NCBI GenBank assembly: GCA_045629165.1
Contig: JAZQQQ010000056.1
Location: forward strand, 14,531 to 78,530
DNA: 64,000 bases
Direction: 5' to 3'
Origin: Bacteroidaceae bacterium
GTDB lineage: Bacteria; Bacteroidota; Bacteroidia; Bacteroidales; Bacteroidaceae
The position numbers were made by a program, and so were the translations under genes. A model generated the notes under the pieces. It searched no databases, was not told the DNA's origin, and saw nothing but the letters and a program-made list of their open reading frames with translations. Positions 1 through 42,169 of this stretch are shown in pieces; positions within the stretch are counted from its first letter, which is position 1; every line of letters begins with the position of its first letter.

Positions 1-1
1 G

Positions 2-1861
2 ATTGGACCAGAATCAGGTGCCCTGGCTAAGGTTGATTTCCGCACAACAGCTATCAATCCTACCTTCGACTGGGCTGTTGGTGGCGGCGCAAATTATTGC
101 AGTCAGGAAATCTTCGATTGGGGTGATTTGGTTTTCAGCAATAACATCGCAGATAACACCTCCTTCAGTAAGCCTGACACCCGTATGGACTTTGATTGGG
201 ATACATCAAGTCCTACCTATCGCAAATTCGACAAGGGTGACCTCATCTTCTATCATGCCCTCTCAAAGGTTACCTTCCACGTTGTAATGGGCGAAGGATT
301 CAGTGAGAGTGATTTTAAGTTCAATACGAATACAAATATCAAGCTCCAAGGCTTCAACGGATCTGGTACATTTGACTTGGCTCAGGGTGAGTTTACATCA
401 ACCAACACTAAGGATTTTTACTACATAGCCCCTCAAAATCCAAGTCTTAAGACTGAAAGTACAAAGAAGTATTATGAGGTCTATTCATATCTGGTTCCTG
501 GCACCGACCTCAAGAACTCTACCGAGGCAGAGGCACTCACATTGCTTGTTAACAACAACAAGTATGTCATCCCAATGAGAACCCTTTATGATAAACTGCT
601 TGAAAAAACGGAAAACCAGCAAGATGCTTCTACCGTCAAGGAGTCAGTTCTGGCAGGTGGTACAAGTATGAAGGCCGGTGTAAACTATCTCTTCACCATC
701 AACATTGGCAAGACCAAGATTAACAACATCACAGCTCAGGTAACTGAATGGGAAAATGTAAGTGCAGAAGAGTTTACTCCAACCAATGCTCGCATAGAAC
801 TCAAACTTGAGGAGCGTGGCACTAATTTAACAATTTCCGACCAATTCTCCTTCTATCGTGCAGCAGATAATAATACAGGAGACATCAACGACAACTATGA
901 GGTTTATAATTGGACAACCGGTTATAACACATCTGGCGTCACGACACCTTCTTTTGTCGCTGCAACGTCAGACAAACCTGCCCATTGGACAACAACTTGG
1001 TACTGGGACAGCAACCTGAATTTCTACCATTTCCGTGCTCTTGCAAAGGATAATGGTTCTACGAAAGGAACCGTTACAGGTAGTGTTACGACAGATGCTG
1101 GCGGAGATTATTATACGCTGACATCCGCAGCAACCTATGATGACATCCTCTGGGGTGCGCCAATGCTTGATGATGGTGTCAACGAAACTGCCGGAACGTT
1201 CAAGTGGAACTATGGTCCAACATCAAAAGGCTTCGATGGTAAAGATGATGCAACAACTCACCAGATTTACAAAGCCATCGGTCCAACAGAAGACCCAATC
1301 AAGCTCATCCTCTTCCACATGATGAGTGAGTTGACCATTAACATCAAGACTTCAACCGGTAGTGATGCTGTTGATTTGGGTGATGATTCTTCAAATAAGA
1401 CAAAGGTAGAACTGGTTAATTACAAGACTGGAGGTAAGTTGTTGTTGGGTAATGGACTCGTCAAGTCAACCGGAGACCCAACAACCGCAGAAATTGCCCA
1501 GAAATCATTTACTGCAGCCGTTGCAACTCCTGCAACTTCAGCTATTGTAAAATATGTATATGGTGCAGTTCCCCAGGATCTCACCAACGTAACCCTCGTC
1601 ATCACCACCCCTGACCACAATCAGTATAAGATTGCAATGAAGGACGTGCTGGCGACTACTGTAACTAACAATAACATCGCCAATCCTTATATTCAGGTGT
1701 CAGGCTCTAGCCCTGCGAAGTACACCATCAACCGCTGGTATCCAGGCTTTAAGTACACCTATACCTTTACCCTCAAGAAGAAAGGTATTGTGGATCTTGA
1801 AGCGACCATCGTAGATTGGGAGAATGTTGAGGCTGGCGATGATAATGTTCAGATACAATAA
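2..1861 (+). CDS. Fimbrillin-family (type V pilin-like) protein with two tandem modules; the 5' end lies upstream of the window
   Basis: The frame is open from nt 2, with no stop before the TTG at 128 used by the ORF track. Module 1 has DLVFSNN, FYHALSKVTFHV and ITAQVTEWENV. Module 2 has DILWGAP, ILFHMMSELTINI and the C-terminal EATIVDWENVEAG. The same three-motif set recurs in the downstream paralogues. Confidence 0.7.
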   Translation: MGPESGALAKVDFRTTAINPTFDWAVGGGANYCSQEIFDWGDLVFSNNIADNTSFSKPDTRMDFDWDTSSPTYRKFDKGDLIFYHALSKVTFHVVMGEGFSESDFKFNTNTNIKLQGFNGSGTFDLAQGEFTSTNTKDFYYIAPQNPSLKTESTKKYYEVYSYLVPGTDLKNSTEAEALTLLVNNNKYVIPMRTLYDKLLEKTENQQDASTVKESVLAGGTSMKAGVNYLFTINIGKTKINNITAQVTEWENVSAEEFTPTNARIELKLEERGTNLTISDQFSFYRAADNNTGDINDNYEVYNWTTGYNTSGVTTPSFVAATSDKPAHWTTTWYWDSNLNFYHFRALAKDNGSTKGTVTGSVTTDAGGDYYTLTSAATYDDILWGAPMLDDGVNETAGTFKWNYGPTSKGFDGKDDATTHQIYKAIGPTEDPIKLILFHMMSELTINIKTSTGSDAVDLGDDSSNKTKVELVNYKTGGKLLLGNGLVKSTGDPTTAEIAQKSFTAAVATPATSAIVKYVYGAVPQDLTNVTLVITTPDHNQYKIAMKDVLATTVTNNNIANPYIQVSGSSPAKYTINRWYPGFKYTYTFTLKKKGIVDLEATIVDWENVEAGDDNVQIQ

Positions 1862-1867
1862 ATAAAA

Positions 1868-4072
1868 ATGAATATAAAGAATAACATACTACTCCTTGGA
1901 GCTACCCTATCCCTCCTCACTGCTTGCCGCGATGAGTTGTATGTCCCCACCTACACTGTTGGTGAGGCAATCAATGCAATTACAATCAAAGCCGGCATCA
2001 GCGAAGTTAGTGATGGTGTTATAACTAAGGCTGTGGATGGCAACCATGCCGGTAATGCCAATGGTGGCGCTCACACCAACTTCACTAACGGCACGCAACT
2101 CCGCTTGCGTGTTGATGGTACGTGGCATAGTTCTATCGTTTCAAAGCCCACCACTGCTACCACAGGTGCTCAGACAGGAGCTGACAATAAGCATAATAAG
2201 GTCGTTTTCTCAACCACCTCTACCCCAGTAGAACAACTCTATTGGGACGACTACGGCACAGCTGATCCAGATAATACTGCAGGTCGCACAGAAGGTCTTA
2301 CCATCTATGGTGTGGCTGTGGATGGCGTAACAGCAGCACCAACGGTTTCTTCTTGGACTACGCAGCCTTGGAACGTTGGAACTGTTAACACGGGTGTTAT
2401 TGACCAGACAGGAGGTTGGACAACAAAAGATCTCCTAACGAGCAACAATGTTACTGCCTCTACTGATGGCACTTACAAGTTCGATGATTATGTATATGAC
2501 CTCACAAATACGCCTAAGAGGTCAAGCAATATTCTTGAGTTCACCCACGCCATGACGAAGATTACAGTCAATCTGACTGCAGGCGAGGGATTCCCTGGAT
2601 GGAGTTCATCAAGTCCAACAGCTGGTAAATTCCAAAATGCGCCTACAGTTAAGCTATTAGGCTTTAATTATACCGGTACTGTCAGCGTGGAGGAAAAGAC
2701 TTCTACTCCGACGGCTTCAACTACTACTGACATCAAAATGCACTTGGCAAATGGCGGTGCAAGCAACCATACTGCACAACTTGATGCACTTGTATTCCCT
2801 GGCAATCAGTTCACAGCAACTATCGCTGCCGATGCTCCAACATACACCCCAACCAGCGCAACCAACATCCTCGAACTGAATGCTGATGGTAATATGTATA
2901 AGGTAACAGCAGCACAGTTGGTAAAAGCAATTGTAGGAACGAGTACAACAGGAACTCCTGTCAACGGCACTCTCGAGCAAGGCAAGAACTACATCCTCAA
3001 TATCATCGTCAACAAGACCAAGATCGAGGTTACAGCAACCATCAAGGATTGGGAGAATGTTCCTACAGAGGATGCTCTGCCAAAGATTAATGTAACTGCT
3101 ACTTATGGCTATACTGTAGGAACATTGAATTCTACAGCCTTTACACATGATTACGACCTCTTCCGCAGCACTACCAACAATGCAACAGGTTATGATGAAG
3201 ATGCAGATAACAGCAATGGCATTACTCCTGCCGCTCGATATGCTTCATCCGCATGGGACAAGTCAATTTATTGGCCTGACCATCAGACACACTATTTCTT
3301 CCGTGGAGTTTATCCGCAGGTAGGTACAAGCGTTACAGGACCCTCTGCATTGGCAACGGCAGAAGCGGTAAACACTGTAAACGGTAATGATGTCATCGCT
3401 GTGGCCAATTCAAAATATACAGCCGCAACTTACCCATCAGAATTGGCCATTGCCATTCCAAGAAAGACTGATGGCACTTTCGATGAGACTTGCAAAGAAA
3501 CCGGGCACACAGCTACCGAAGGTATTTGTGCAACCGAAGGCACTATCAACATGAACTTCGAGTATGCCATGAGTAAAGTGGAAGTTCGATTGAAATCAAG
3601 TGCTACAGACGCTAGCCATATCGCCATGACCAAAGACAATACCAAGGTTGAAATCATTGGTGGCTACAGCAAGGCTCGCATCAAACTGTCCGATGGTTTG
3701 CATGATGCCTACGCAGATGCAGATAAGGTAGATTATACACTTAGCAATCTAACAACATCTGAAAGCGGTTTTCTCGTTACTACACGTGATGCCATCGTGC
3801 CACAGGTAATTGGTAATGATGTAATATTCCGCATTACTGTTATTACAAATGATAAAGGTAATTCAGACCCTTCTGATGACGAAACAGATGTCTACGAGTG
3901 CAAGGTCAACCTAATCAATGTTAAGAATTCAAGTCCTGCCACCCCTGTCACCGAATGGGTACACGGCAAGCACTACATCTATGAACTTGACGTGAACAAG
4001 ACCGCCATCAACGTCACCGCGACCCTCAAAGACTGGATAGAGGTGACTGCAAGTGATAACATATGGTTCTAA
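1868..4072 (+). CDS. Fimbrillin-family surface lipoprotein, two tandem modules (734 aa)
   Basis: Lipobox LLTAC followed by acidic RDE. Module 1 has DLLTSNN, FTHAMTKITVNL and VTATIKDWENV (nt ~3046-3063). Module 2 has FEYAMSKVEVRL and the C-terminal VTATLKDWIEV. Starts 6 nt after the upstream gene. Confidence 0.75.
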   Translation: MNIKNNILLLGATLSLLTACRDELYVPTYTVGEAINAITIKAGISEVSDGVITKAVDGNHAGNANGGAHTNFTNGTQLRLRVDGTWHSSIVSKPTTATTGAQTGADNKHNKVVFSTTSTPVEQLYWDDYGTADPDNTAGRTEGLTIYGVAVDGVTAAPTVSSWTTQPWNVGTVNTGVIDQTGGWTTKDLLTSNNVTASTDGTYKFDDYVYDLTNTPKRSSNILEFTHAMTKITVNLTAGEGFPGWSSSSPTAGKFQNAPTVKLLGFNYTGTVSVEEKTSTPTASTTTDIKMHLANGGASNHTAQLDALVFPGNQFTATIAADAPTYTPTSATNILELNADGNMYKVTAAQLVKAIVGTSTTGTPVNGTLEQGKNYILNIIVNKTKIEVTATIKDWENVPTEDALPKINVTATYGYTVGTLNSTAFTHDYDLFRSTTNNATGYDEDADNSNGITPAARYASSAWDKSIYWPDHQTHYFFRGVYPQVGTSVTGPSALATAEAVNTVNGNDVIAVANSKYTAATYPSELAIAIPRKTDGTFDETCKETGHTATEGICATEGTINMNFEYAMSKVEVRLKSSATDASHIAMTKDNTKVEIIGGYSKARIKLSDGLHDAYADADKVDYTLSNLTTSESGFLVTTRDAIVPQVIGNDVIFRITVITNDKGNSDPSDDETDVYECKVNLINVKNSSPATPVTEWVHGKHYIYELDVNKTAINVTATLKDWIEVTASDNIWF

Positions 4073-4079
4073 AAATTTT

Positions 4080-4166
4080 AATATTAGTCGGATTTCAGCA
4101 AAAAGAAGTAAAATATTAGTCGGATTTCGACAAAAATCAAAGAATTATTTCTCGTATTTCGACAAA
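4080..4166 (+). repeat. Three direct repeats with exact 32-bp phasing (core TCGGATTTCGACAAA) upstream of the AAA+ ATPase gene
   Basis: AATATTAGTCGGATTTCAGCAAAAA at 4080-4104 and AATATTAGTCGGATTTCGACAAAAA at 4112-4136. A degenerate third core, TCGTATTTCGACAAA, sits at 4152-4166. The cores start at 4088, 4120 and 4152. Confidence 0.6.
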
Positions 4167-4207
4167 GTTTGGTAACTTTATAAAGTAATAAATAGTAGAA
4201 TACTGAA

Positions 4208-5581
4208 ATGACAAAGTATATTGATCGCATAATCGACAAATACCTTCTGGAATGGAAGGTAGAAGAGGACAGAAAACCTCTTCTCCTACGTGGCGCTCGT
4301 CAGGTGGGAAAATCGTCTGCGGTCAGAAACCTGGGTAAGTCGTTCAAGTATTTTGCTGAGCTGAATTTTGAGAAACAAAAGGCTGCAAAGACTTTCTTCC
4401 AAGGAGACATCGATGCAAAACTTATTGCAGGGAAAATATCCAACTATATTGGTACCCCGATAGAACCCGGTCAGACCCTGCTCTTCCTTGATGAGATACA
4501 GGATTGTCCTGAGGCTATCATGGCTCTTCGATTCTTCAGAGAGGATTATCCAGAGCTGCATGTCATCGCTGCCGGTTCGCTTTTGGAGTTCGCACTTGAA
4601 GAGCTACCTACCTTCGGAGTGGGAAGAATACGTTCCCTCTTCATGTATCCAATGACGTTCGACGAGTTCCTTGTTGCCACTGGCAATAGCGGCCTGATAA
4701 ATATGCGTGACATGTGTGATGCACAGCATCCTCTTGACGAAGCATTCCACATGAAGGCGATAGATTTGTTCCGCATATACCTGCTCGTGGGTGGTATGCC
4801 AGAAGCTGTTGCAAAATGGGTAGAAACGGGCGACTTCAACAAGTGTCATGGCGTGCATAATGATATAGTGTTGACATATCAGGACGATTTCAACAAATAC
4901 AAGAAACGTGTAGATCCGGAATTGCTCAGATGTACCATGCGTGGTGTCTGCCATCAGGTTGGAGGACCATTAACCTTCTCGCAAGTACCTGGCGATTACC
5001 GTAGTACTCAGATACGCGAAGCCCTTCGTCTGCTCACATTGGCAGGAATTATCATCCCTGTAGTTTCAAGTGCAGGTAATGGTGTGCCTCTTGACGCAGA
5101 ATCCAATGAAGATCGTTGCAAATATCTCTTCCTCGATACAGGATTGATGTTGAATGTGCTTGATATTGATGGAAACTCCTCACGTCAGATGGTAGAGCTC
5201 ATCATGGCAGGTACACCGCAGGATCTTGTTAATAAAGGAAATATAGTTGAAATGTTTGCCGGTAATGAGACTATGCGATACAAAGCACCAACCCAACGCT
5301 ACAAGTTGTTCTTTTGGGAACAGTCAGGAAAGAGTGTAGCAGAGGTTGATTATCTAGAGGCCCACGATTGTCAAGTCGTTCCTATTGAGGTAAAATCAAG
5401 CACCCAAGGTGGTATGAAGAGTCTTTGGATGTTTATGCGAGCCAAGCATCTTACCCGTGCCATTCGCACCAGTCTTGAGAACTTTGGTGAGTTCGACTAT
5501 ACAGACACCCTGGATGGTGATACCCAACGGCACGTAACCATCGTTCCGTTGTACGCCTTAAGCATTTTGAATAAAAGATAA
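4208..5581 (+). CDS. AAA+ family ATPase (COG1373 / AAA_14 + DUF4143-like)
   Basis: Walker A GARQVGKS (aa 29-36) and Walker B LLFLDEIQ (aa 91-98). It is 457 aa with a C-terminal region ending in a VVPIEVKSS-type segment, as in DUF4143 proteins as I remember them. Confidence 0.75.
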   Translation: MTKYIDRIIDKYLLEWKVEEDRKPLLLRGARQVGKSSAVRNLGKSFKYFAELNFEKQKAAKTFFQGDIDAKLIAGKISNYIGTPIEPGQTLLFLDEIQDCPEAIMALRFFREDYPELHVIAAGSLLEFALEELPTFGVGRIRSLFMYPMTFDEFLVATGNSGLINMRDMCDAQHPLDEAFHMKAIDLFRIYLLVGGMPEAVAKWVETGDFNKCHGVHNDIVLTYQDDFNKYKKRVDPELLRCTMRGVCHQVGGPLTFSQVPGDYRSTQIREALRLLTLAGIIIPVVSSAGNGVPLDAESNEDRCKYLFLDTGLMLNVLDIDGNSSRQMVELIMAGTPQDLVNKGNIVEMFAGNETMRYKAPTQRYKLFFWEQSGKSVAEVDYLEAHDCQVVPIEVKSSTQGGMKSLWMFMRAKHLTRAIRTSLENFGEFDYTDTLDGDTQRHVTIVPLYALSILNKR

Positions 5582-5596
5582 ACAACATCATAGATA

Positions 5597-8500
5597 ATGA
5601 AGAAAAAACTATTATATCGATTAAGGAGAACCCTCCTCACCCTCTGCTTGATGGCATCGGCCACCATGGTATGGGCGCTGGACGTTACCGATGAGGCGAG
5701 TCTGCGTACTGCTCTAGATGGTGTAGAAGCTAAACTCAAACTAACGCAGAACATTTCATTGACTAGTACACTTGAAATTAAGCGAGATGTTACTCTTGAT
5801 CTCAACGGTTACACTATTTCTGCAAATGGTTTCCGCGCTATACATATCACAACAGGTGCTAATGTATTAATTACCTCTGAAAAGCCTTCTGCGATTACCG
5901 TCAGCGGTAGCATTGCTGACAATAGTTCAGTAATTCGCCTTGGAAAAAATGGTGGTGACCCTATCAATATCTCTCTTACGATTGATGAGAATGTAACTAT
6001 TTATACTGACAAGTGTTACGGTATCACCGTTTTTGGTAATGCAACTACTGAGACCCTTGTTGTTAAAGGAACTGTCAGCACTACCAATGTTCCTGCAATA
6101 TCTGGCAATGGTTCAGCCGGTTATGGTGGCACAACTATAACAATTGCTCCCACTGCTCGCATAATAACCACAAATGAAGTTGCTATTTATCACCCACAGA
6201 GCGGTACGCTCACTGTTAATGGTACAGTGACAGGTGCAGGTGGTATAGAGATGAAAGGTGGTAAATTAGTTGTTGGTTCCGATGCTCAGATAACAGCCAC
6301 TGCTACCCCTTCCCATACCGCCAACAACGACGGAACATCAACCCGAGGCTATGCTGTTGCTATTGTAGAGAGCAACGGTGGATACGAGGGCGTAAGCATA
6401 GTAAATATTAGTTCCGATGCAGTGATTGATGGTTCTGTATCGATGCTTGTGGACTCTGAACATTCAGGCGTCACACCTCCAACATTTGACCCTGCAGGTG
6501 TGCAGATGAATGTCAGCGTGACCAGCGGAGGTGACGTGAAGAAGTATGCTTCCCTTCATGATGCGCTCAATGAGGCACCTGTTGGTGCTACAGTTTCTAT
6601 ATTGAATGACATCGCCTTAAAGGAGGCAACGGTTGTTGATAAGGACAACATCACTATAGACCTTAATGGTAAGAGTATAACAACAACAGGCGACCGTGCT
6701 TTCTGGGTAAAGAATACTGGTGCTTCTATAACTGGCACAGGTATTATCTCTGCTACAGGAATAGTAAATCCTGACTGGTCGGTAATACAGGTTGGCTCAG
6801 AGACTGCAAACGCAGCAAGTCTCACCATAGCAAATGGTGTTACCATTACTACCGACGATTGCTACGGTATCACCACCATTGGAACCGGTGCTTCAAGCCT
6901 CAACGTGAATGGCGCCGTTACCACCAAGGTACGCCCAGCAATTTGCTCAACCAATAGTTTCTCTACAACTGTTGGTTCGACTGCAAACATCACCACTACC
7001 GAGGAGGTTGCCATCTATTCTACTGGTGCAAGTCTCTCGGTTAGCGGTACTGTAACCGGACTTTCGGCCGTGGAGACTAAGAGCGGTACACTGACCATCG
7101 ATGGTGCGACCCTTGAAGCCACCGGCACACCATCGCATACTGCAAATAATAACGGTACCTCTACACGAGGCTATGCTGTGGCTATGGTTAAGAATACGAA
7201 CTTCACAGCAGTAAGCACCGCAAACTTTACAGGCACCAATAATATCACCGGCCCCGTGGCTACCCTCATTGATTCTGGTACTGCTGATGATCCTACCTTC
7301 ACCGGCATCACCATGCTGGCAGACATCAATGGCGAGCACTACTCTTCTGTTGTAGATGCAACGAACATTGTGCCTAACGATGGTACGGTGAAGTTAATGC
7401 AGAACCTCGCATTGTCGGCTCCGCTACCACTTGATCGCCATGCTTCATATAAGCTTGACCTTGATGGACATAACATTACAGCTACCAACAGCAGTGCCAT
7501 AGCATTAACAAGTGGTGATCTTATCATTACCAATTCAAATGCAACTACTGCTACTATCTCATCTACGGGAACTGTAGCAGCAACTGATGCTGTAATTCAT
7601 TTGGGTGACAACAATGGTGAAAACCGCAATATCTCGCTTGGTATTGACCAGAACGTAACTGTCAGCACTGACCAATGCCAGGGCGTTCTCCTTTCGGGAA
7701 CCAATACCCGCGAGTCACTTACCGTGAAGGGAACCATCTCAACCGATGGTCAGCCTGCCATTGCAGGTGACAAGGCCAATGGCGGTACAACCATCAATAT
7801 TGAGGAGAATGCTAATGTTACCTCTTCTAACAATGTGGCTATCTACCACCCACAGACAGGTACACTCACCGTGGAAGGTATAGCTGGTCATAATGCAGTA
7901 GTTCGCGGTACCACTGGTATCGAGATGAAGGCAGGCGACCTTATCGTAGGTGAGCATGCAACGATTACTGCAACGGCAGCATCGGCTTCTCATTCTGCCA
8001 ATAACAATGGTCCTTCAACCGCAGGTTATGGCATTGCCATCATCGAGAATGCAAACTTCGTAGGTGTAGGCAATGTGGATATTGAGACCACTGAGCATAT
8101 TACTGCTCCTGTGGCTGTGGCCATGTTGGTAGATTCTCGTCACCCAGGCGTGGCAGAACCTGAGTTCATAGGTAATGTATTGCTGGTGGCTGAGGTAACC
8201 GGCACCAATACCGACAAGTATGCTAATCTCGAGGATGCCTTCAAGGTGGCTCAGGATGACAATACCGTAAGGCTCCTTGAGGATGCTTCCATTGCCTCTA
8301 CGATCAACATTGCCAAGGCTATCACCGTTGACCTCAACGACTACACCATCACCGGCACACAAGCCAGTGGCAACTACGTGATAACAACCAGCGCTAACGT
8401 CACTATGAAGGATGGCGGTATCGTAGCCAGCAACGGTGGCGGTATCAGCAGTACTGCTGGAACGCTTACCATGCAGAAGATGAATGTGAGAGCGAAAGAG

Positions 8501-9745: not shown

Positions 9746-9751
9746 ACGAAA

Positions 9752-12019: not shown

Positions 12020-12090
12020 TGCCAAGAGTCTATTAGAGAATAGATTGATAGTAATGAGGAATCGAGAAATCGAGACAAAATAAAGATAAA

Positions 12091-13521: not shown

Positions 13522-13552
13522 TTAAGTCAACAGGAAAAAATATTAGATTAAA

Positions 13553-16528: not shown

Positions 16529-16592
16529 CCCTCAGCCTACCCTATATTGGTGAAAGTGGAGTAAGGTAAGACTTATGAATTAGATAATAGAA

Positions 16593-19028
16593 ATGAGAAG
16601 AAACATATATTATTTTTTACTGATAATAAGTACTCTGTTGGTTGGTTGTAAAGACTCACTGACAGATGATATACATGATATTACAGGTACCCATATAATC
16701 CGTGTGGGTGGTGTTGTGTCGGATGATGTCATTACAGTGCTGACACGTGCCGGCGAGACTACCGATACAGTACGCGCTGAAACTGTTGATTGGATGAAGG
16801 GCGCATTGCTAAAAGGATTGGATATTACATATTCGAACCTCAAATCTGATGGCGGTCATGATATTGACAACCAGCATGTGGCAATACTGAAATGGACGGG
16901 CACAATTAATCAAACGAGTAACCGTGGTGATTATACCTTCAAGTACAAGAGTTTTAATGGCCAGGCTGATGCCGAATGGTATGATAACGGTCCTCATTTC
17001 TTTGAGGGCGAGTACGTGCCGGAAGAAATTCGTACCACAGGGTCTACTATCACTGCCGTAAATCTAGTATCCGATCAGCACGATGATACTGACCATACAT
17101 ACAACACAACAGGTGATGCCAGCGGTACAATTGGTAATTATACCTTACTATCGCACTATGTGGGAATGCCGCCTAACTGGACTACTTCTGCAACCGTTGA
17201 CCAGGTGCTCCTGCCATTCAAGCATCGTTTGGCGCGCGTTATCGCCTATATCCTTATTGACCCAGATTTGAAGGATAAGTCAGGTACGGCAACAGCAACG
17301 CTGAAAGGATATAAGAAGGATGCAAGTGGAAATGATATGAGTACCGAAGATCCTTCTACCACCGAGCTTCGTTTTGCCAACGTTAAGGTTCTGGAAAAGG
17401 TAAATGAGGTCGCTTCCACTGGTGGCAGTGATGCTGCAGCATCTTTGACCCCGGTGTGGACCGAAGCACGCCGTGTGATTCCTCATTTTGAAATGGAACT
17501 CACCAAAAGTGTGAACAATAAACAGGAGTTGGCCACGCCTGAAAGCGCCACCCAAGCAGAGAAGGATGCAGCACAATCTGGATTCATAGTCTACAAACGC
17601 AAACGCGATGAGAGACTCTTCCATCCTCGTGAGGAGGGCTGGTACGAAGCACATAAGGATTATGTGCAAAAAGGTCAGAATAGTGCTTATACGCAAAAGA
17701 AATATCTCTCTGTTCCAGTATATGATGTCATTGTACGTCCAACTTATGAGACAACCGATGATGTGATGTATGACGAGGCTGGATACTATAATGATGACAA
17801 AACACTCAACAATGAAAACATTGTCAATTTAGCCAAGGTGAGCAATTCCATTGAGTTTGAGATGACCCTCAATAACGACCTTGTATATACCAAGAAGTTT
17901 GAGTTCGACCTCAATGCCAACCAGCAGACAATCGTATATATAACCATCGACCGTGAGAGCATCGACTATGATGAGTCAACATCAGAGAAGTGGGTCAGCA
18001 CGAATACCACTGATGATTACTATGGTGTGAACAACGACCTTGGCCATAACATGTCGATGGCAGGCAACAGTTGGCAGCGTGCCTTCCGCAACAGTACCTC
18101 AAGTATTAATGTTACTGACGGTAATGGATACGGTGCACAGGAGAATGGCGAGGATGTTGGCCAGTACGTAAGTGATGAAACATGGATAAAGGCTTTCGCC
18201 CAGGCATACCAGATTGGCGCACATCATGGAGACTATTTTATCCTTGATAGGGATATCACTATCAATGCCACACTCCTCCCGGATAACTTCGTTTTTACAG
18301 GTCATCTGGACGGAAGGGGACATACGATAACTGTTACAGGTTTGAATACTTCATGGAGTGAGGATCATTACACTTATGATGTAATAACAGACTTTAGCAA
18401 CCTTCCTGCTACTATATATAAGCAGGTTGGTGAAAACTATGAAGTGTTTACTCTCCCAACTTTATATACTGCAAACTATTATACACAGGATGAAATAGAT
18501 GTAGCACAACAAGGTGATCCAGCCTATGGCAAGACAACAAATGATATTAATAACTATAGCCCAACCTCGCCATCCTTGAGTGAGGTAATGACCGGAAGCA
18601 CAACCTACTATACTTTCGATGGTCAGAACTATTCTCCATACAGTCGTCCAACAGAGTTGTATGCTTATGTAAACCATCCTATCCCTCATACCAGTGGAAG
18701 CTCGCTCTTCGCTGGCCTCAATGCCATTTATACCACTGCACAGGAGAGTGCTACAAATCCTACGGCAAAAGACCCAACGACGGGATTGCCAGTTGTAACG
18801 TGGGAGGCAAACGTACACAAGGAGAATGGTAAATGGGTGCCAGTAGCAGGCTATCGTGCCGAGTTATACAATGTGAAACTCTCAGGAGGAACCTTCTTCC
18901 CTGTAGGAACTGTTCTTGATGGCAGTTTGTCAAACCAGACTGTCAATGGCTATATTTACAACTGTTGGGAATTGGACTCTGATCCTGATACCTATATCAG
19001 CAACAAGGTACCCCTACCTCAATATTGA
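16593..19028 (+). CDS. Lipoprotein with a divergent fimbrillin-like N-terminal part and a short C-terminal head module (811 aa)
   Basis: Lipobox LLVGC followed by KDSLTDD. Carries FKHRLARVIAYI and TIVYITIDRESIDYDE (a weak version of the DW strand). The head signature is DYFILDRDITI..FVFTGHLDGRGHTITVTGL..SSLFAGLNA. Confidence 0.6.
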   Translation: MRRNIYYFLLIISTLLVGCKDSLTDDIHDITGTHIIRVGGVVSDDVITVLTRAGETTDTVRAETVDWMKGALLKGLDITYSNLKSDGGHDIDNQHVAILKWTGTINQTSNRGDYTFKYKSFNGQADAEWYDNGPHFFEGEYVPEEIRTTGSTITAVNLVSDQHDDTDHTYNTTGDASGTIGNYTLLSHYVGMPPNWTTSATVDQVLLPFKHRLARVIAYILIDPDLKDKSGTATATLKGYKKDASGNDMSTEDPSTTELRFANVKVLEKVNEVASTGGSDAAASLTPVWTEARRVIPHFEMELTKSVNNKQELATPESATQAEKDAAQSGFIVYKRKRDERLFHPREEGWYEAHKDYVQKGQNSAYTQKKYLSVPVYDVIVRPTYETTDDVMYDEAGYYNDDKTLNNENIVNLAKVSNSIEFEMTLNNDLVYTKKFEFDLNANQQTIVYITIDRESIDYDESTSEKWVSTNTTDDYYGVNNDLGHNMSMAGNSWQRAFRNSTSSINVTDGNGYGAQENGEDVGQYVSDETWIKAFAQAYQIGAHHGDYFILDRDITINATLLPDNFVFTGHLDGRGHTITVTGLNTSWSEDHYTYDVITDFSNLPATIYKQVGENYEVFTLPTLYTANYYTQDEIDVAQQGDPAYGKTTNDINNYSPTSPSLSEVMTGSTTYYTFDGQNYSPYSRPTELYAYVNHPIPHTSGSSLFAGLNAIYTTAQESATNPTAKDPTTGLPVVTWEANVHKENGKWVPVAGYRAELYNVKLSGGTFFPVGTVLDGSLSNQTVNGYIYNCWELDSDPDTYISNKVPLPQY

Positions 19029-19034
19029 TAAAAG

Positions 19035-21800
19035 ATGAAGAAGTCATATTACATAATACTACTTTCACTGTGCTGCATGCTTGTAGGATGCAGTGAAGAA
19101 CCGCTTGATACATCATTGACTATCGAACAGCGCAATCTGATTGGCACAGCAGTGAACTTCAGTCCCTATGTTGCCAACTTTAATATTACTCGTGCCGAAC
19201 CTTCCAAACCTACAGGTAATTCCAACAATCATGAAGGCGGATTCAATGCCAACGACATGATGTATATCTATCGTCAGTATTGGGACGAAACAACGGGAAC
19301 ATGGGTATACAGAAATCCTCCAGGAACTATCTATAAATACACCGATTTGAACCTTGGTGAGTCAGGTGTCTTTGACAAGACAAGTTGGCGCGTGTATGAG
19401 GGTAAGACTTTCCGTTTCTACGACTCTGATTACGAGAATCCCGAGAACTCCCTTTACGACACTTCCTTACCGGCAGACCAGCAAGTGCACTCATATAGAA
19501 AAACACTCACTAAGGGAGACTCCATCATATGGGAGACCGGTTCTACGGTCCGCTTCCGTGCATGGGCCTTGAGCAGAATGGGTAATGACCTTTCCGATAA
19601 AACCGATGTTTCTGGTGCTATCGAACCAAGGACCATTAATTATCCGGACTATATGGTCTGCGACTGGGTAACAGTATCCGGTCCTACACAGGCCATTCCA
19701 TTGGCCATGCGTCATCTGGGTTGCCGTATAGGCTTTACACCCCGTGAGAACAACCAGTTTGTGAAGATTGAACTTTGTACCGATCCTGCTGACTATATGC
19801 GTGATGACAACGCTCAGTCCGATGCTGATGATGCCCTTGACAAGCATCCAGAATTTGCAGATCCAGAACACCCAGAAATACTAACTGCGGCACAATGTGC
19901 AGCCAATGTTGCAGATGCTTTTGACCGTATGTGCTGGCCGGCAGGTGTGGATATGGAAACATTGTCTCTGCTGACATGTTCGACTGACGAAAAGACAAAG
20001 TACAGTTACAAAAGTCAAGAGATGAATATTGACTTCATTAAGGAAAAGAATGAAAACGGCACCTACAAGAATGTGAAGCATGCTCAGTTTTCAAGTTCCT
20101 CTGATAGTCGCTATTACCTCATATCCATTCCTTTTGATATGACCACAATGGAGCCAATAACTCTACCACCATACACGCGTTTCAAGGTCTGGCTGCGCGA
20201 TGTGAACAGTGGTGATGCTGGTACCAGTGAGCAGACGGGCTCAAGCGAGAACCGCTATCACATCTTCCAGTTAAGTGATGTCAAGAAGAGCGGCAGCACC
20301 GAGCCAGCCTTCCCTGATGGCTTTACTATGCTTGCCGGTTACAGTGCAACCTTCTCAGTAGGTTATCACTATAATAATCTGGAAGTATATGCAGAGGATA
20401 GCTTTACATGGGACGAAAGTCCACTCAATTCTACTATCTCTGAGGACGAGCATAAAGAATCAGACCAGCCTATCGCTTCTTCATATAATTGGTGGACGTC
20501 GGCTATCAAGGCTGCCTGCGAAAATGCAAAGTCAGGCAAGTCTTATAAACCTGATTTCAAAATCAGTAACAAGAATGAGTTGCTGGAGTTGGCCAATCTT
20601 GTGAATGGAAACTTTACGACATCTCCAGATATATTCAAAGAATGGGTTATTACCACTGACGAAAGAGGAGTTGAAATTAGTCGTGAGTTGAAATGGTACA
20701 CTGGTACTCATGTTAATGGTGATGGTTCTATTGATAAAGATTATGTTGACAAGAGTGTCCTTCAAAGTCAAGGATATATTTTCTACGATAAATATACACC
20801 ATCAATTGCAGACCGACCAGCAACTGTTGAGGAGGATTACCTCAAGGCACCTTACAACTTCTACGACGATCAGGTGAAGAGTCGTTGGACGGTAACACTT
20901 AGTGAAGACATTGATCTGAAAGACTGGAAACTTCCAACCATCGGTTCGGAGGAAAATCCCTTCTGCGGTTACTTTTACGGAGCTGGACACACCCTTACCA
21001 ACCTCTACATGACGAACAACGGGCAGATCTTCGGATATGCCATGAACGGTACTATAGCCAGCCTTAAAGTGGTGTCAACGCATCCTGTGAGCATCACTGG
21101 TACTTGCGAGAACGAACGTATAATTGGTTGCTCTGTTATAGCACCCTCAACTACGGCTACACTGGCCAACAAGACCAAGGGCTACTGCTATTTTGTGGGT
21201 TGCTTCCATCAGGGCAGTTCCGCAGCTCCGCTCGTCTACGACAGTCAGGATAAGGGATTCGAGATGTATGGTTGTATGCAGGCCAATGACGGTATAGCCC
21301 CAGGTAGTGCTGCTCTTGCCAATATCTCAACATCGGAAGCAATTGTTGGTAGTATCAGTGATGAGACTGAACTGGAAGAAATCAAATGGGGTCTGGTGTC
21401 ATGTAACTACTACGATACGGAACTCTCTCCTGGTTCGGTGGCATTCCACTCACCTTCCGGAAACTTGTCTGCATTCCATCGTCTTCAGTATATCCGTGGT
21501 TCAAAGACCCACATCTTGTGTGCCAAGAACGACTTCCTTGTAGATAGTAAAACAGAATGGAAGAAACTTGCCCAGCAGCGTAAGGACGAACTTTACGGAG
21601 TGGCACCTTGGCGTGCTATGAACTATGGTATCTTTGTGTATAACAGTACCGTACGAGAGGATATCGATCGATGCAAGATGCATTACGAACCTGCTACAAC
21701 TGTGGGATATGCACACTTGTATCCAGAACTTAAGACTGGTTTGCTTACTGCTGCAGATGAGGGTTCTAAGTATCTCAACGTGCTTGACCAGTTTAACTAA
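19035..21800 (+). CDS. Lipoprotein with a divergent fimbrillin-like N-terminal part and a C-terminal head module (921 aa)
   Basis: Lipobox MLVGC followed by SEE. Carries MRHLGCRIGFTP and YAEDSFTWDESP. The head signature is NKNELLELANLVNG..DIDLKDWKLPTIGSEENPFCGYFYGAGHTLTNLYM..GQIFGYAMNGTI. Confidence 0.6.
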   Translation: MKKSYYIILLSLCCMLVGCSEEPLDTSLTIEQRNLIGTAVNFSPYVANFNITRAEPSKPTGNSNNHEGGFNANDMMYIYRQYWDETTGTWVYRNPPGTIYKYTDLNLGESGVFDKTSWRVYEGKTFRFYDSDYENPENSLYDTSLPADQQVHSYRKTLTKGDSIIWETGSTVRFRAWALSRMGNDLSDKTDVSGAIEPRTINYPDYMVCDWVTVSGPTQAIPLAMRHLGCRIGFTPRENNQFVKIELCTDPADYMRDDNAQSDADDALDKHPEFADPEHPEILTAAQCAANVADAFDRMCWPAGVDMETLSLLTCSTDEKTKYSYKSQEMNIDFIKEKNENGTYKNVKHAQFSSSSDSRYYLISIPFDMTTMEPITLPPYTRFKVWLRDVNSGDAGTSEQTGSSENRYHIFQLSDVKKSGSTEPAFPDGFTMLAGYSATFSVGYHYNNLEVYAEDSFTWDESPLNSTISEDEHKESDQPIASSYNWWTSAIKAACENAKSGKSYKPDFKISNKNELLELANLVNGNFTTSPDIFKEWVITTDERGVEISRELKWYTGTHVNGDGSIDKDYVDKSVLQSQGYIFYDKYTPSIADRPATVEEDYLKAPYNFYDDQVKSRWTVTLSEDIDLKDWKLPTIGSEENPFCGYFYGAGHTLTNLYMTNNGQIFGYAMNGTIASLKVVSTHPVSITGTCENERIIGCSVIAPSTTATLANKTKGYCYFVGCFHQGSSAAPLVYDSQDKGFEMYGCMQANDGIAPGSAALANISTSEAIVGSISDETELEEIKWGLVSCNYYDTELSPGSVAFHSPSGNLSAFHRLQYIRGSKTHILCAKNDFLVDSKTEWKKLAQQRKDELYGVAPWRAMNYGIFVYNSTVREDIDRCKMHYEPATTVGYAHLYPELKTGLLTAADEGSKYLNVLDQFN

Positions 21801-21835
21801 TATCCAATGAGGAGCTGAAATTGATTATTATAAGG

Positions 21836-23005
21836 ATGAGAAGTATAAAGAAATACATATATTTAGCTCTGCCTCTGCTATGTTTTGGCTGCACAGTTGA
21901 CAATGCGGAGCAACAGCAACAACCGCTGGTCACTATGGACTGCGATATGTTCAATGCAAGCATTGTGCCATTTGTTGAAGATGGCGACAATGGCTGTGCA
22001 ACTCGTGTGAATGTAGCGGGCGATAGTTTCGTAGCGGGCGATCTGATACGTGTACGCATCATTGCTCCTTACGTATCATCAAACGAATATGGTGAGAGTA
22101 CCTGGGGTGGAACATACGATAACTTCCGCATATGGCAGTGGTCTGCAAACCACGCTGCATGGGCTTCAGTTGGTTCAGACCGAGGTTTCGACTTTGATAA
22201 TGACTTCTATCCAAGCGGTGCATCAAGCTCAATAACCATGCCACAGGCTACACCTTTTGTCTTCACGGCTACCACATGGACCGAGGAGATACACTACATA
22301 CTCTCTGAATATGGCAAAGTGGGCGGTACTTCCGTAATATCATTCAGCAACATCTTCAAGGCCGACCAGCGCAAGGAGGAGAACTACCGTGCAAGCGATG
22401 TGCTTTGGGCACAGCAGTATATGGAGACGGGAACAGACCGTGTATGCCTCAGTTTCGAGCATAAGATGGCTGCACTGAAGATTGACATAAGCGAATTTGC
22501 CAGCGAACTGACAGGTTCGGAAGAGATTATCCTGACATTAGAGAACATGCCAGACATCAATCAGCAGGAGGTGACCATCGGAAACTATTATGCCGAGAAG
22601 ATGAAGGACAAGAAGGCATATGGCGACTATTGGCGCACCAAGTGCGAGTATGCAGATAACGGCAAGGTGCTGGGCATCGTGGTGCCAAACGAGAGTGTTG
22701 GACATCTTGAGCAGATTCTGTTCACTTCATTGACACAGGATGGTGTCTATACGGCGTACAAGCAGGATGCCAACACATTCCTGCTCATCATTCCACCATA
22801 CACAGTACCAGATGGCATTACCCCTACTCTTTGGCTTCGTCAAGGCGAAAAGAGATGGTCAGCACCGCTGACATTGCCTAATAGCACTGTCACCCCCACT
22901 CAGATTGACCGCACCTTTGAATCGGGAAAGCGCTATTCTGTGGTGATGCAGATGCCTGCTACTCCTGACCCTACGCCAAATCCTGATCCAACGCCTCAAC
23001 CTTAA
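21836..23005 (+). CDS. Fimbrillin-family surface lipoprotein, single module, with a Pro/Thr-rich C-terminal tail
   Basis: The ATG at 21836 gives MRSIKKYIYLALPLLCFGC-TVDN; the track's TTG at 21821 adds only 5 aa. Carries SDVLWAQQ and FEHKMAALKIDI. The tail is PATPDPTPNPDPTPQP (nt 22955-23002). Confidence 0.65.
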   Translation: MRSIKKYIYLALPLLCFGCTVDNAEQQQQPLVTMDCDMFNASIVPFVEDGDNGCATRVNVAGDSFVAGDLIRVRIIAPYVSSNEYGESTWGGTYDNFRIWQWSANHAAWASVGSDRGFDFDNDFYPSGASSSITMPQATPFVFTATTWTEEIHYILSEYGKVGGTSVISFSNIFKADQRKEENYRASDVLWAQQYMETGTDRVCLSFEHKMAALKIDISEFASELTGSEEIILTLENMPDINQQEVTIGNYYAEKMKDKKAYGDYWRTKCEYADNGKVLGIVVPNESVGHLEQILFTSLTQDGVYTAYKQDANTFLLIIPPYTVPDGITPTLWLRQGEKRWSAPLTLPNSTVTPTQIDRTFESGKRYSVVMQMPATPDPTPNPDPTPQP

Positions 23006-23031
23006 TCCGAGAAATACTATAGAATTATCAT

Positions 23032-25500
23032 ATGCAGACAAGACTATATTATACCGCCATACCTTATGCTATTCCCTGCTCTAAGTGGGTCAGATGGGTA
23101 CTGATTTGCACGTTCTTTGCATTCCTTGCATCTTGTAGGAATGAACTTGAAGACATTACTCCTGAAGCAGTTAATGAAATTGCCAACGTCCAGGCAGAGA
23201 TCGGCTTGGGTATGGAGACGCGTGCTGCACAGCCGACTAATAACGTGGACTATATAGGTCGCGATAAGTTCGTGGAGAACGATGTGATGGTGCTGACTAA
23301 AATAAAACGTACCACCAAACCTCTTTCTGATTTCACCTACACGAATGTTCACTATACCAGCAATAACAACCGCGCATGGTCGAGAGATACAGATCTTGAT
23401 GGTTTCGATAAGCATGACCGAATCTATTGGTCGGACAACAAGAACGGACATACATTTATCGGTTACAGTATTCCTCAGACATGGGATAAGACTACAAAGT
23501 GGGTGCAAGCTGGCAACGAATATTCCGGTCAGTTCTCATATACAGAAGAAAATGGTATCAAGATTGTTGATTTCACAGTCAATACTGGGGATCTCAAAGA
23601 CGAGAAGGTGAAGAACTCCAATGGTGCATACGTAGCAACAGGCAACAAGGTGGACAGTACCGGAACCAAACTTAAGAATGAAGACCTCTTGCTGACATAC
23701 AACACTGAGCAGAAAGCAGATGTAAGTGGTCTCAATACTACCATTTATTATCGTCATGCGTTGGCATCGCTTCGCGTTATTGTCGATATTCAGGGCTTCT
23801 CACCAAGTTCCACGGCTCAGGATACCAAAACCACTGTTCACGACCTAGTGGTCAAGAATCAGCCTTGGAAATACAAATGGACACAAGCTCCACAAACTGG
23901 TGCTCATGGCATAGCTATCCCTGGTTGGGGTGTGGACAATATCACTACACAAGGAGATGGAACTGTAGATATCAAGACCTGGCAGCCACGTCCTTCTGGT
24001 GAAGGTACAGGACAGGCGAAGAAGTTCACTTTCTATTCGCTTATAGTGCCAGGAAAACAGGAGAATCTCACGCTCGATTTCCAGGTTACCTATCCGAATT
24101 ATCTGAATCCGGCAGAGAAGCAGACAAAGAATTACAGCACAAGATTATCTGTAATAGACTTTCTCCCGGGATATACCACCACTATTCTCCTCTCTCTTAA
24201 CCACGACGGAGAGCCGGTATATATTGGTGCGGAGTATATCGACTGGGAGAATGTGGAAACACCTGACCGAAGCGAGTTGCAGAAGATTTCCATCTTCCTT
24301 GATACCTCAGGCACAACGGATGCATCTGGAAAGACCATTGTATCTATAGCCAAAGATCCGGTTGCTACCAAGGACGATGCCACATGGCTCTATTATCTTG
24401 ATGGCATCAAAACAGATGAAACAAACGTCAGAGATATCTATGGACATACTGGTACACCGGCAGATCCGTTCATCATCAAGACTGCTCGACAACTTCTCTC
24501 ATTTGCTTATGAGGTAAAGAGCGGACGAGTGTTCTCTGGTCAGTATATTAAACTTGACAGTGATATATTTCTACAGAAGACAACAAGTGGTGAGGATATC
24601 ATCTGGCCGGGTGTAGGAGATGAAACCCATGCCTTTGAAGGTGTATTCCTTGGAGACAGCCGTTACATTAAGGGACTCAAGGGACAACCTTTCTTCAACG
24701 TGATTGGTGACTATGCAGTAGTTGACAAAGTGAACTTCTCTAAAGTTATCGATGTTGTCGGTTCTGGCGTAGTTGCCAACATCAATAAGGGACTCATTGC
24801 CGGTTGCAATGTAGAAGGTAAGGTTACTCAGGCTAATCCTGGCAGCAGCGAATCGTATTGCGGTAGTATTGTTGGCGACAACCAGAGCTTCATTGTGGCT
24901 TGCACCCATGTAGGTGATGTGGCCGGCTATGGTTATGTGGGCGGACTTGTTGGTCGCAATGCCGGTGCCCTCGTAGCTTCATACCACGCAGGTGCTGTGG
25001 CCTATGCATTGAATGCAACTGCTGACCAAAAGAAAGGTATTGGTGGTTCGACAGGTTTGAAGGATGCGACCAAGAGCATAGTCTTCAGTTGTTACCAGAA
25101 CAGCGATCTTACTTCCCATACTCCTGACTTGCAGTCATGCCGTGCTGCTTGGCCATTGACAACAATACAGATACAGTCTGAAGATTTTGTTAGTTCAATA
25201 GATGATAATATATTTGGTTTGGAAACATCAACACCAGAATCAGGGTATAATGAATACATTACAGGTGCGCGATATCATTATAGTTTGAACAATGCTTTGC
25301 AAAAATTCAGTAGTTGGGTAAATACAGTTGCTATTGAAGCGGCAAGAACAGGTGAAAATGTAGTCCTTCCTTGCCATACATTCTCTGCTCGACAAGTGCA
25401 AGTCCTGAACAACCTATTCAGTAAGGATCCAACGAATGGAAACCTTGCACCTGCCCACTTGTACAAATATGTGCCAGGTACCTATCCTAAGGTACAATAA
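23032..25500 (+). CDS. Chimeric lipoprotein: fimbrillin-like module plus a C-terminal GLUG-motif head (822 aa)
   Basis: Lipobox FLASC followed by RNELED. Carries EDLLLTYN, YRHALASLRVIV and GAEYIDWENVETPD. The head starts with ADPFIIKTARQLLSFAYEV, IKLDSDIFL and HAFEGVFLGDSRYIKGL, followed by CGSIVGDN and YVGGLVGRNAG. Confidence 0.7.
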   Translation: MQTRLYYTAIPYAIPCSKWVRWVLICTFFAFLASCRNELEDITPEAVNEIANVQAEIGLGMETRAAQPTNNVDYIGRDKFVENDVMVLTKIKRTTKPLSDFTYTNVHYTSNNNRAWSRDTDLDGFDKHDRIYWSDNKNGHTFIGYSIPQTWDKTTKWVQAGNEYSGQFSYTEENGIKIVDFTVNTGDLKDEKVKNSNGAYVATGNKVDSTGTKLKNEDLLLTYNTEQKADVSGLNTTIYYRHALASLRVIVDIQGFSPSSTAQDTKTTVHDLVVKNQPWKYKWTQAPQTGAHGIAIPGWGVDNITTQGDGTVDIKTWQPRPSGEGTGQAKKFTFYSLIVPGKQENLTLDFQVTYPNYLNPAEKQTKNYSTRLSVIDFLPGYTTTILLSLNHDGEPVYIGAEYIDWENVETPDRSELQKISIFLDTSGTTDASGKTIVSIAKDPVATKDDATWLYYLDGIKTDETNVRDIYGHTGTPADPFIIKTARQLLSFAYEVKSGRVFSGQYIKLDSDIFLQKTTSGEDIIWPGVGDETHAFEGVFLGDSRYIKGLKGQPFFNVIGDYAVVDKVNFSKVIDVVGSGVVANINKGLIAGCNVEGKVTQANPGSSESYCGSIVGDNQSFIVACTHVGDVAGYGYVGGLVGRNAGALVASYHAGAVAYALNATADQKKGIGGSTGLKDATKSIVFSCYQNSDLTSHTPDLQSCRAAWPLTTIQIQSEDFVSSIDDNIFGLETSTPESGYNEYITGARYHYSLNNALQKFSSWVNTVAIEAARTGENVVLPCHTFSARQVQVLNNLFSKDPTNGNLAPAHLYKYVPGTYPKVQ

Positions 25501-25821: not shown

Positions 25822-25892
25822 GCAAATTTGCCCCCGCTTTTTGACAGTTCTTGTCAATGGCGGAAAATTTGCAGAAAATTTGCAGAAAATTT
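25822..25892 (-). promoter_or_regulatory. Operator-like cluster between the WYL gene and the small ORF: a palindrome, an inverted repeat and an 11-bp tandem repeat
   Basis: Perfect palindrome GCAAATTTGC at 25822-25831. Inverted repeat TTGACA-gttct-TGTCAA at 25841-25857. GAAAATTTGCA occurs twice, plus a partial copy, at 25863-25892. The core AAATTTGC occurs three times in 70 nt. Confidence 0.45.
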
Positions 25893-29179: not shown

Positions 29180-29213
29180 AAATATGTGAAACAAGTCCGT
29201 TTGATTCTCTTCC

Positions 29214-29221
29214 AAAAGTAC
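29214..29221 (-). promoter_or_regulatory. Bacteroidota -7 box TACTTTTG (TAnnTTTG) for the GH3 gene
   Basis: The plus strand reads CAAAAGTA, 35 nt upstream of the ATG at 29179. Confidence 0.4.
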
Positions 29222-29254
29222 AATAAAAATGGAATTGAATGAAACATATGTCCT

Positions 29255-29262
29255 ACCTTTGC
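29255..29262 (+). promoter_or_regulatory. Bacteroidota -7 box TACCTTTG for the HExxH membrane protein gene
   Basis: Matches TAnnTTTG, 21 nt upstream of the ATG at 29283. Confidence 0.4.

Positions 29263-39994: not shown

Positions 39995-42169
<2,175 letters not shown>

Follow-up and report, generated by a model that had tools for sequence, protein, structure and literature searches.

A probable large and conserved type V pilus operon of Bacteroidales that encodes tandem double pilins and head-bearing pilins

Type V pili are the principal organelles of adhesion in Bacteroidota, and work on their assembly and structure has mainly concerned the five-gene operons of Porphyromonas gingivalis, with the ligands of gut and rumen type V pili largely unknown (PMC12632263). 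Two accounts describe anchor pilins without a cleavage site, stalk and anchor pilins with C-terminal donor strands, and tip pilins that lack donor strands and often carry an extra C-terminal binding domain (PMC13655056, PMC12632263). We analysed a 64,000-nucleotide (nt) stretch of a contig from a Bacteroidaceae bacterium (JAZQQQ010000056.1, positions 14,531 to 78,530; hereafter the window), in which 11 co-directional plus-strand open reading frames (ORFs), g1 to g11, occupy positions 1-25500. Nine of these 11 genes encode lipoproteins with the type V (FimA/Mfa) pilin fold. The locus is probably an unusually large yet evolutionarily conserved Bacteroidales type V pilus operon of at least 13 genes, and the block in the window its distal end.

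Like Mfa1-5 and FimA-E of P. gingivalis, the proteins encoded here are lipoprotein pilins with a two-domain, transthyretin-like beta-sandwich and an Arg site after the anchor strand. As in that organism, donor strands are predicted on stalk- or adaptor-type pilins and donor-less accessory (tip) proteins are encoded downstream, while an anchor without a cleavage site is here known from relatives only. Fold matches include P. gingivalis FimA (6KMF), Mfa3 (5NF4), Mfa4 (5DHM) and Mfa1 (5NF3), with identities of 7-12%, which is background level. However, P. gingivalis has five genes per operon and no tandem double pilins, whereas 13-14 genes are conserved here (16 with the two inserted genes g3 and g4) and a DUF3575 gene leads the locus. 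Furthermore, Mfa5, the large tip protein of P. gingivalis, contains a von Willebrand domain and requires the type IX secretion system (T9SS), whereas four lipoprotein pilins carry large heads here (g7, g8, g9 and g11).

The combination of a pilin module and a C-terminal domain, encoded distally in an operon with anchor and stalk genes, is shared with the Bacteroides tip pilins BovFim1C (4EPS), BfrT and BthT. BfrT and BthT are three-domain pilins diversified by a diversity-generating retroelement (DGR), and all three tip pilins feature a globular ligand-binding head (bioRxiv 10.1101/2024.11.15.621889; PMC12632263), and 4EPS is among the fold matches of g8 and g9. In contrast to the lectin-like heads of Bacteroides tip pilins (C-type lectin fold), the heads encoded here are 300-580 amino acids (aa) long and appear to be of a beta-helix/GLUG type in g7, g9 and g11. 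There is one tip gene per operon in Bacteroides, compared with four head-bearing genes plus g10 here, where no DGR was seen. The best fold matches of g8 and g9 are Mfa_like_1 "putative cell adhesion proteins" from structural genomics (4H40 BF2867, 3UFI BACOVA_04980, 4K4K BACUNI_00621 and 3T2L BF1858; E = 1e-4 to 5e-7), which belong to the same Pfam family that is matched by g1, g2, g5, g6 and g10. These crystallised proteins are single modules of 255-305 aa, whereas the modules described here are 380-450 aa with insertions, and are duplicated or fused to heads.

An earlier note, made from this sequence without database searches, had called the locus atypically large, which is a fair description relative to the fim and mfa operons, with five genes each (PMC13655056), and to Bacteroides fragilis 638R, where 93 pilus genes are distributed over 22 operons (bioRxiv 10.1101/2024.11.15.621889). 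Tip pilins with an added C-terminal binding domain are already known, as is the public annotation "fimbrillin family protein". The literature that we searched held no account of a conserved locus of at least 13 genes, a tandem-fused pilin family, beta-helix/GLUG heads on pilins, or four head-bearing pilins per operon.

Pilin modules, tandem fusions and C-terminal heads

The oversized genes of this block are either two pilins fused in tandem (g1, g2 and g5) or a pilin with a C-terminal head (g7, g8, g9 and g11). The first double pilin gene, g1 (2..1861), is open from base 2 and cut at its 5' end by the window start, which leaves 619 of about 720-740 codons; its orthologues, found in more than 50 loci, encode 720-740 aa. 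The other two encode double pilin lipoproteins, g2 (1868..4072; 734 aa, lipobox LLTAC followed by RDE) and g5 (9752..12019; 755 aa, lipobox MLSGC followed by SDDE). Single pilin lipoproteins are encoded by g6 (12091..13521; 476 aa), which combines a T-R-A site with a D-W strand and a conserved tail, and by the short g10 (21821..23005; 394 aa), with a T-R-V site. In g7 (13553..16528), a pilin module (approximately aa 18-410, nt 13604-14782) that ends in LEDWEDI precedes a 580-aa, putatively GLUG-type head (nt 14783-16525). The g8 protein (16593..19028) comprises a pilin module (approximately aa 20-461), a disordered linker (aa 461-518) and a beta-rich C-terminal domain (aa 519-811), while g9 (19035..21800) comprises a pilin module (approximately aa 20-446), a low-confidence linker (aa 447-468) and, in the predicted structure, a beta-helix domain (aa 469-921). 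The final gene of the locus, g11 (23032..25500), encodes a pilin module (approximately aa 36-412) ending in YIDWENV, followed by a 410-aa head. ORF coordinates gave the same gene sizes and intergenic gaps (6-135 nt) as reported in the earlier note, the gaps from g1 to g11 being, in order, 6, 135, 15, 6, 71, 31, 64, 6, 20 and 26 nt.

All nine proteins have the type V pilin fold. The Mfa_like_1/type V assignment made in the earlier note from motifs is supported by profile matches for five genes, by family members for g7 and g11, and by predicted structures for g8 and g9. In the Pfam search that had been suggested as a check, five genes reached the Mfa_like_1 gathering cut-off (PF13149; 27 bits): g1 (E = 1e-25, 91.7 bits, two stretches), g2 (E = 3e-26, 93.4 bits, three stretches), g5 (E = 1e-32, 114.1 bits, two stretches), g10 (E = 4e-10, 40.6 bits) and, marginally and just over the cut-off, g6 (E = 3e-6, 28.1 bits). 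The g7, g8, g9 and g11 proteins had no Pfam match of their own even at E = 10, save for faint GLUG motifs in g7 and g11. Among relatives, 6 of 27 g7 orthologues matched PF13149 (best 2e-10), as did about a third of the 120 g11 homologues listed (303 found). Profile comparison with hhalign related the N-terminal part of g7 to the double-pilin modules (96-97%), that of g11 to the N-terminal module of g5 (55%), g6 to the C-terminal module of g2 (95%) and g10 to the C-terminal module of g5 (92-94%).

No Pfam domain was present among 120 listed members of the g8 family (896 members) or among the listed g9 homologues, and the structures of these two proteins were therefore predicted with AlphaFold2, using alignments of about 60 homologues each (mean predicted local distance difference test score of 79 for g8 and 84 for g9). 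A Foldseek comparison with the Protein Data Bank (PDB), also suggested in the earlier note, matched both to pilin crystal structures, with a probability of 1.00 for the best matches of the N-terminal modules. The g8 model matched 4H40 (E = 5e-7), followed by 3UFI, 4K4K, 3T2L, 3SY6, 4RDB, Mfa3 (5NF4) and Mfa4 (5DHM), and the N-terminal module of g9 matched 4H40 (E = 1e-6), followed by 3T2L, 4K4K, 3UFI, polymerised FimA (6KMF) and 4EPS. The NCBI name of g9 homologues in Xylanibacter ruminicola and X. brevis is "fimbrillin family protein". PDB sequence searches with g5, g7, g11, g4 and a g7-orthologue profile returned nothing meaningful, and the pilin structures were reached by fold comparison only. 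NCBIfam has no family for any of ten proteins of the block, nor for the upstream genes of related loci described below.

The earlier note had also reported three motifs in the same order in nine genes: D-h-L-W/h (motif 1), F/Y-x-H-x-h-S/A-K-h-x-h (motif 2) and a terminal strand, h-x-D/E-W-x-x-h (motif 3). Every motif string that it quoted was found in the proteins, and a pattern search recovered all three motifs in g1, g2, g5, g7 and g11. It did not do so in g6, which has no strict motif 1, in g8, which has motif 2 only, in g10, which has no motif 3, or in g9, where the motifs are degenerate only (AMRHLGCRIGF and SFTWDES). The set is present twice in g1, g2 and g5 because each of these is a tandem double pilin. 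This duplication is reflected in the similarity of the two halves of each protein (hhalign 98% for g2 and 99% for g5).

An exhaustive search for the g5 family identified 328 clusters (50% identity) among 1.84 billion. These relatives are nearly all 600-1100 aa and therefore represent a distinct multi-module pilin family. No conserved T-R-A-like site was found where one module of a double pilin joins the next, and these proteins probably remain in one piece. Some g5-family representatives are 900-1100 aa, where triple modules or added domains are possible. In many related loci (L010, L013, L015, L017, L024, L025, L029 and others), a fourth double pilin gene of about 800 codons lies directly before the g1 orthologue, and the genome sampled here may therefore carry one just upstream of base 1.

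The g7, g8, g9 and g11 proteins share an arrangement of pilin module, linker and C-terminal head of 300-580 aa, and the linker is of low confidence in both models (aa 447-468 of g9, which includes SFTWDES, and aa 461-518 of g8). The g9 head is modelled by AlphaFold2 as a right-handed beta-helix, for which Foldseek returned pectate lyase 3ZSC, IgA1 protease 7UVL and the HK620 tailspike (probability 0.2-0.5, TM-scores 0.1-0.25). Profile comparison relates the heads of g7, g9 and g11 to one another (hhalign 97%), which suggests that those of g7 and g11 may also be beta-helices. GLUG motifs (PF07581) in g7 and g11 scored 9-11.6 bits against a cut-off of 20.5, and 5 of 27 g7 orthologues had a Glug match (best E = 2.4e-6). 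The g8 protein is 811 aa here and about 575 aa in Xylanibacter-type loci, where the alignment skips aa 584-692 (window 18342-18668), which therefore form an extra segment in the g8 head of this lineage, while g7 is shorter, at about 670-680 aa, in L010, L015, L017 and L062.

Maturation signals, gene order and upstream genes

Conservation of maturation signals was measured over orthologue alignments, for example 52 sequences for g2, 33 orthologues for g6 and 19 for g8. The earlier note had observed a lipobox Cys followed by mostly acidic residues in every complete paralogue, and this holds for all eight complete pilin-like proteins (CRDE, CSDDE, CTDD, CHDR, CKDS, CSEE, CTVDN and CRNE); the Cys column is conserved in 96-100% of the compared sequences. 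The same note proposed a search for an Arg/Lys maturation site, and a conserved T-R/K-A site was located 29-38 residues past the Cys in all eight proteins (T-R-V in g10; T-K-A, 34 aa past the Cys, in g2; T-R-A, 35 aa past the Cys, in g5). Arg or Lys occupies this position in 100% of sequences for g5, g6, g7, g9, g10 and g11, in 51 of 52 for g2 (the remaining one is a gap) and in 14 of 19 for g8. A predicted Arg/Lys maturation site is thereby present in all eight families. In P. gingivalis, the gingipain cut at this Arg site frees the anchor strand and starts strand exchange (PMC13655056), and a surface clostripain makes the corresponding cut in Bacteroides (PMC12632263).

The proposal that a C-terminal D/E-W strand acts as the donor strand is tenable for g1, g2, g5 and g6 only. 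Each of these proteins ends with a D/E-W strand and a family-conserved tail of 10-15 aa: ...V.IQ/K in g1, where the chain ends in ...IVDWENVEAGDDNVQIQ; ...VWF in g2, where it is invariant among the orthologues displayed; ...GSGNAxLEW(D) in g5, which reads ...GTITPEW in the protein encoded here; and ...DGT[IV].. in g6. This layout resembles that of Mfa1, in which the donor has two strands and the final residues are essential (PMC13655056). The proposal fails for the remaining five proteins. The D/E-W strand is internal in g7 and g11, with a domain of 400-580 aa after it, while the g9 copy is degenerate and lies in the flexible, low-confidence linker, and g8 has none. The g10 protein has neither a D-W strand nor a donor-type tail, as its chain stops right after the preceding strand. 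By the published criteria, this suggests that g1, g2, g5 and g6 resemble stalk or adaptor units, and that g7 to g11 resemble tip-type, acceptor-only units.

The block was compared with 86 related loci from X. ruminicola, metagenome-assembled genomes (MAGs) and metagenomes. Two NCBI MAGs contain the g6-g11 block with its order unchanged, and four Bacteroidales/Bacteroidaceae MAGs with (g4-)g5-g11 came from a scan of one genome per species. A X. ruminicola contig carries g1-g2-g5-g6-g7-g8-g9-g10-g11 without g3 and g4, and a metagenome scan provided 77 further loci. The conserved order is u1-u2-u3-u4-g1(-extra g1-like gene)-g2-g5-g6-g7-g8-g9-g10-g11, with u4 and g1 adjacent in 33 of the 86 loci and the successive pairs from g1 to g11 adjacent in 48, 47, 46, 40, 30, 24, 9 and 10. 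The flanks before u1 and past g11 vary between loci. As four more co-directional genes precede g1 in relatives, the window holds the distal part of the locus only. By this comparison, that part would amount to nine of the 13-14 conserved pilus genes, together with two insertions.

In about 20 related loci, the u1-u4 set immediately precedes the g1 homologue (for example, L046:4307-9525 and L010:1767-6371). The u1 product is a DUF3575 protein that has an ordinary signal peptide and resembles an outer-membrane barrel in its C-terminal part; in some loci it is extended by 240 aa at the N-terminus. DUF3575 may be an outer-membrane partner in type V pilus assembly; no functional study of this domain was found in the literature searched. 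The u2 product is a DUF5119-like lipoprotein (SCIEPPLHLPG) without a T-R-A site and with a conserved C-terminal strand, features that suggest an anchor pilin, while u3 and u4 encode ordinary Mfa_like_1 lipoproteins with an Arg site.

The earlier note proposed that the block is transcribed from a promoter upstream of the window, based on the lack of an exact TAnnTTTG box in the intergenic gaps. The gaps do lack this box, and all plus-strand matches in the block (367, 4761, 11164, 14880, 21629 and 25209) are intragenic. The motif is not above chance in the window (34 observed and 38 expected), so its absence from the gaps is weak evidence by itself. Comparison with related loci does support an upstream promoter: the 150 nt that precede u1 contain TAnnTTTG in 20 of 20 loci, at a distance of 25-120 nt from the DUF3575 start, compared with 2 of 261 internal gaps. 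For this genome, the upstream DNA lies outside the window, and look-ups of the exact g5 and g11 sequences returned no record. Scans for sigma-70 promoters and terminators performed no better than shuffled controls, and the sigma-70 model is not applicable to Bacteroidota promoters. One of the exact plus-strand matches, TATCTTTG at 21629-21636, lies 185 nt upstream of the g10 start, within the 3' part of g9, and may be an internal promoter for g10-g11 or a chance occurrence.

Assembly and alternative readings

The reading that we favour, with reasonable confidence, is that positions 1-25500 form the distal, accessory section of a single large type V (Mfa-like) pilus operon on the chromosome of a fibre-degrading Bacteroidales from gut or rumen. 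An assembly scheme can be drawn from the established mechanism in P. gingivalis and Bacteroides. The proteins would be exported, lipidated and flipped to the cell surface, where an Arg-specific cysteine protease (gingipain- or clostripain-like, and encoded elsewhere) would cut after the conserved Arg, which would free the lipidated anchor strand and open a groove. The tails of g1, g2, g5 and g6 would enter the groove of the preceding subunit in a stalk or adaptor role, with the double pilins joining as four-domain blocks. The g7-g11 proteins would be acceptor-only, tip-type subunits, present either as alternative tips on separate fibres or as a multi-protein tip complex as in Mfa3-5, and a u2-like anchor would close the fibre at the membrane. 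By analogy with these systems, the pilus is likely to mediate adhesion to plant-fibre, host or microbial glycans.

Several points weigh against this reading. Polymerisation, cleavage and surface exposure are predicted from sequence and analogy, and the pairing of grooves with strands from sequence. As the window starts inside g1, only relatives show the promoter, the DUF3575 gene, the anchor and the main stalk pilin, and a search of the window for a maturation protease (C11 or gingipain) found none. Five of the nine proteins have no free donor strand, compared with a single tip per linear fibre. In addition, the beta-helix fold was matched with a probability of only 0.2-0.5, no fold was assigned to the beta-rich g8 head, and the g3 insertion, possibly with its own promoter, may split transcription.

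The lack of a free C-terminal donor strand in five of nine proteins is also consistent with nine independent, non-polymerising surface lipoproteins (adhesins or glycan binders) on the outer membrane or on vesicles, for which the operon serves co-regulation only. Polymerisation has never been demonstrated for most members of Mfa_like_1, among them the crystallised "putative cell adhesion proteins" that gave the best fold matches, and a B. fragilis locus gave no typical fimbriae visible with antisera (PMC12632263). However, the Arg site is found at a steady distance from the Cys in all eight families and its only known role is release of the anchor strand. Conservation is strong at the very C-terminal ends of g1, g2, g5 and g6, and the genes are constantly linked to DUF3575 and to an anchor-like lipoprotein without an Arg site. 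We therefore regard this explanation as possible, though unlikely.

A more specific form of polymerisation, which we consider quite unlikely, is one ordered hetero-polymeric fibre in which approximately ten distinct pilins would each occur once, in an order set by family-specific pairs of tails and grooves. The double pilins would then act as rigid spacers, and g7, g8, g9 and g11 would be joined via an internal D/E-W linker, with heads branching off one stalk. If true, this would constitute a pilus-based, cellulosome-like scaffold that attaches rumen Prevotellaceae to plant fibre, with heads that are binding or catalytic.

Catalytic heads are also central to an explanation in which the pilin modules are scaffolds for enzyme display or nutrient capture, and the beta-helix heads are polysaccharide lyases or hydrolases for plant cell-wall breakdown. 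The g9 head resembles pectate lyase, polysaccharide lyase and tailspike folds, the window also encodes glycoside hydrolases (GH3, GH9 and a GH10 fused to an esterase) and a carboxylesterase, and relatives of the locus come from Xylanibacter, MAG and metagenome assemblies. However, these fold matches have the low probabilities and TM-scores given above, no lyase or glycoside hydrolase family was matched even at E = 10, and the GLUG motif, as the sole signal in the sequence, does not denote catalysis. Invariant residues of the g9 head are mostly Gly and aromatic, and no SusC/SusD pair adjoins the locus in any relative, which makes this explanation very unlikely.

A recent tandem expansion of one pilin gene, as redundant or decaying paralogues or as an antigenic-variation cassette store, would fit the shared direction and motifs of the genes and the mutual similarity of g1, g2 and g5. 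It is nevertheless hardly credible and is refuted by conserved one-to-one orthology and synteny: the genes form a fixed set of distinct components. Pairwise identity is at most 22-25% and most pairs are invisible to BLASTP. Separate orthologues of each gene (30-97% identity) occur in an unchanged order in up to 48 other loci. All frames are intact with conserved signal, cleavage and tail features, and a scan of positions 3900-5800 only found no invertible or repeated DNA linking genes.

A large pilus operon would mean that type V pili can be far more elaborate than in the five-gene systems, with three to four duplicated pilins and four different large-headed pilins in one conserved unit. The locus is widespread, as it is found in X. 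ruminicola and X. brevis, both of which are cultivable, in related MAGs and in metagenome contigs. It raises the questions of how five donor-less subunits are fitted, whether a donor strand can act inside a chain, and whether tail sequences set the order of assembly. Should the heads bind or cut polymers of the plant cell wall, the locus would be relevant to how fibre is colonised in ruminants.

Insertions and the remainder of the window

Two non-pilin genes lie between g2 and g5. The first, g3 (4208..5581), encodes an ATPase with AAA_14 and DUF4143 domains (Pfam) and was found in none of the 86 related loci, being seen in this window only. The 135-nt gap before g3 contains a 32-nt tandem direct repeat (4071-4102 and 4103-4134, 81% identical), and TAACTTTA at 4174-4181, 27 nt before the g3 ATG, differs from the Bacteroidota -7 box at one position. 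A promoter may have arrived with the insertion and could also serve g4-g11.

The second, g4 (5597..9745), encodes a 1382-aa secreted protein with an ordinary signal peptide and is found between g2 and g5 in the closest relatives only (L004, L005, L006, L029 and L086), being absent from Xylanibacter-type loci. It had no Pfam, NCBIfam or PDB match. Self-BLASTP at E < 1e-3 identified no internal repeats; by eye, some segments look repeated, such as ...TPSHTANN.GTSTRGYAVA..., which occurs three times. Kinship with the pilin heads was rejected (hhalign probabilities below 3%). The C-terminus (...MYDLQGRKI...GMNIMKM...KVYVK) resembles a short T9SS sorting tail by eye only. A role as T9SS cargo was unsupported, as the last 121 or 282 residues had no Pfam or NCBIfam match at E = 10 or 1, no C-terminal sorting domain (Por_Secre_tail/TIGR04183) was found, and BLASTP detected no similarity to the Por_Secre_tail protein of the window. 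If it were a true T9SS cargo, g4 could be an Mfa5-like accessory protein.

Directly past g11 is a convergent gene for an HTH_11 and WYL-domain regulator (25891-26793, minus strand). As the flank past g11 differs between loci, nothing indicates that the pilus locus is under the control of this regulator. Its gene is followed by a plant cell-wall enzyme cluster (26795-47019) that begins with GH3 (26795-29491, minus strand) and includes a carboxylesterase (38312-39868, minus strand), a GH10 xylanase fused to an esterase (39995-42157, minus strand) and a GH9 with a CelD_N domain (44473-47019, plus strand). A small protein with a Por_Secre_tail domain is also encoded (35715-36215, minus strand), and the organism therefore has T9SS cargo. 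The window is chromosomal DNA of a fibre-degrading Bacteroidales, and also encodes AraC-type regulators, carAB and pyrG.

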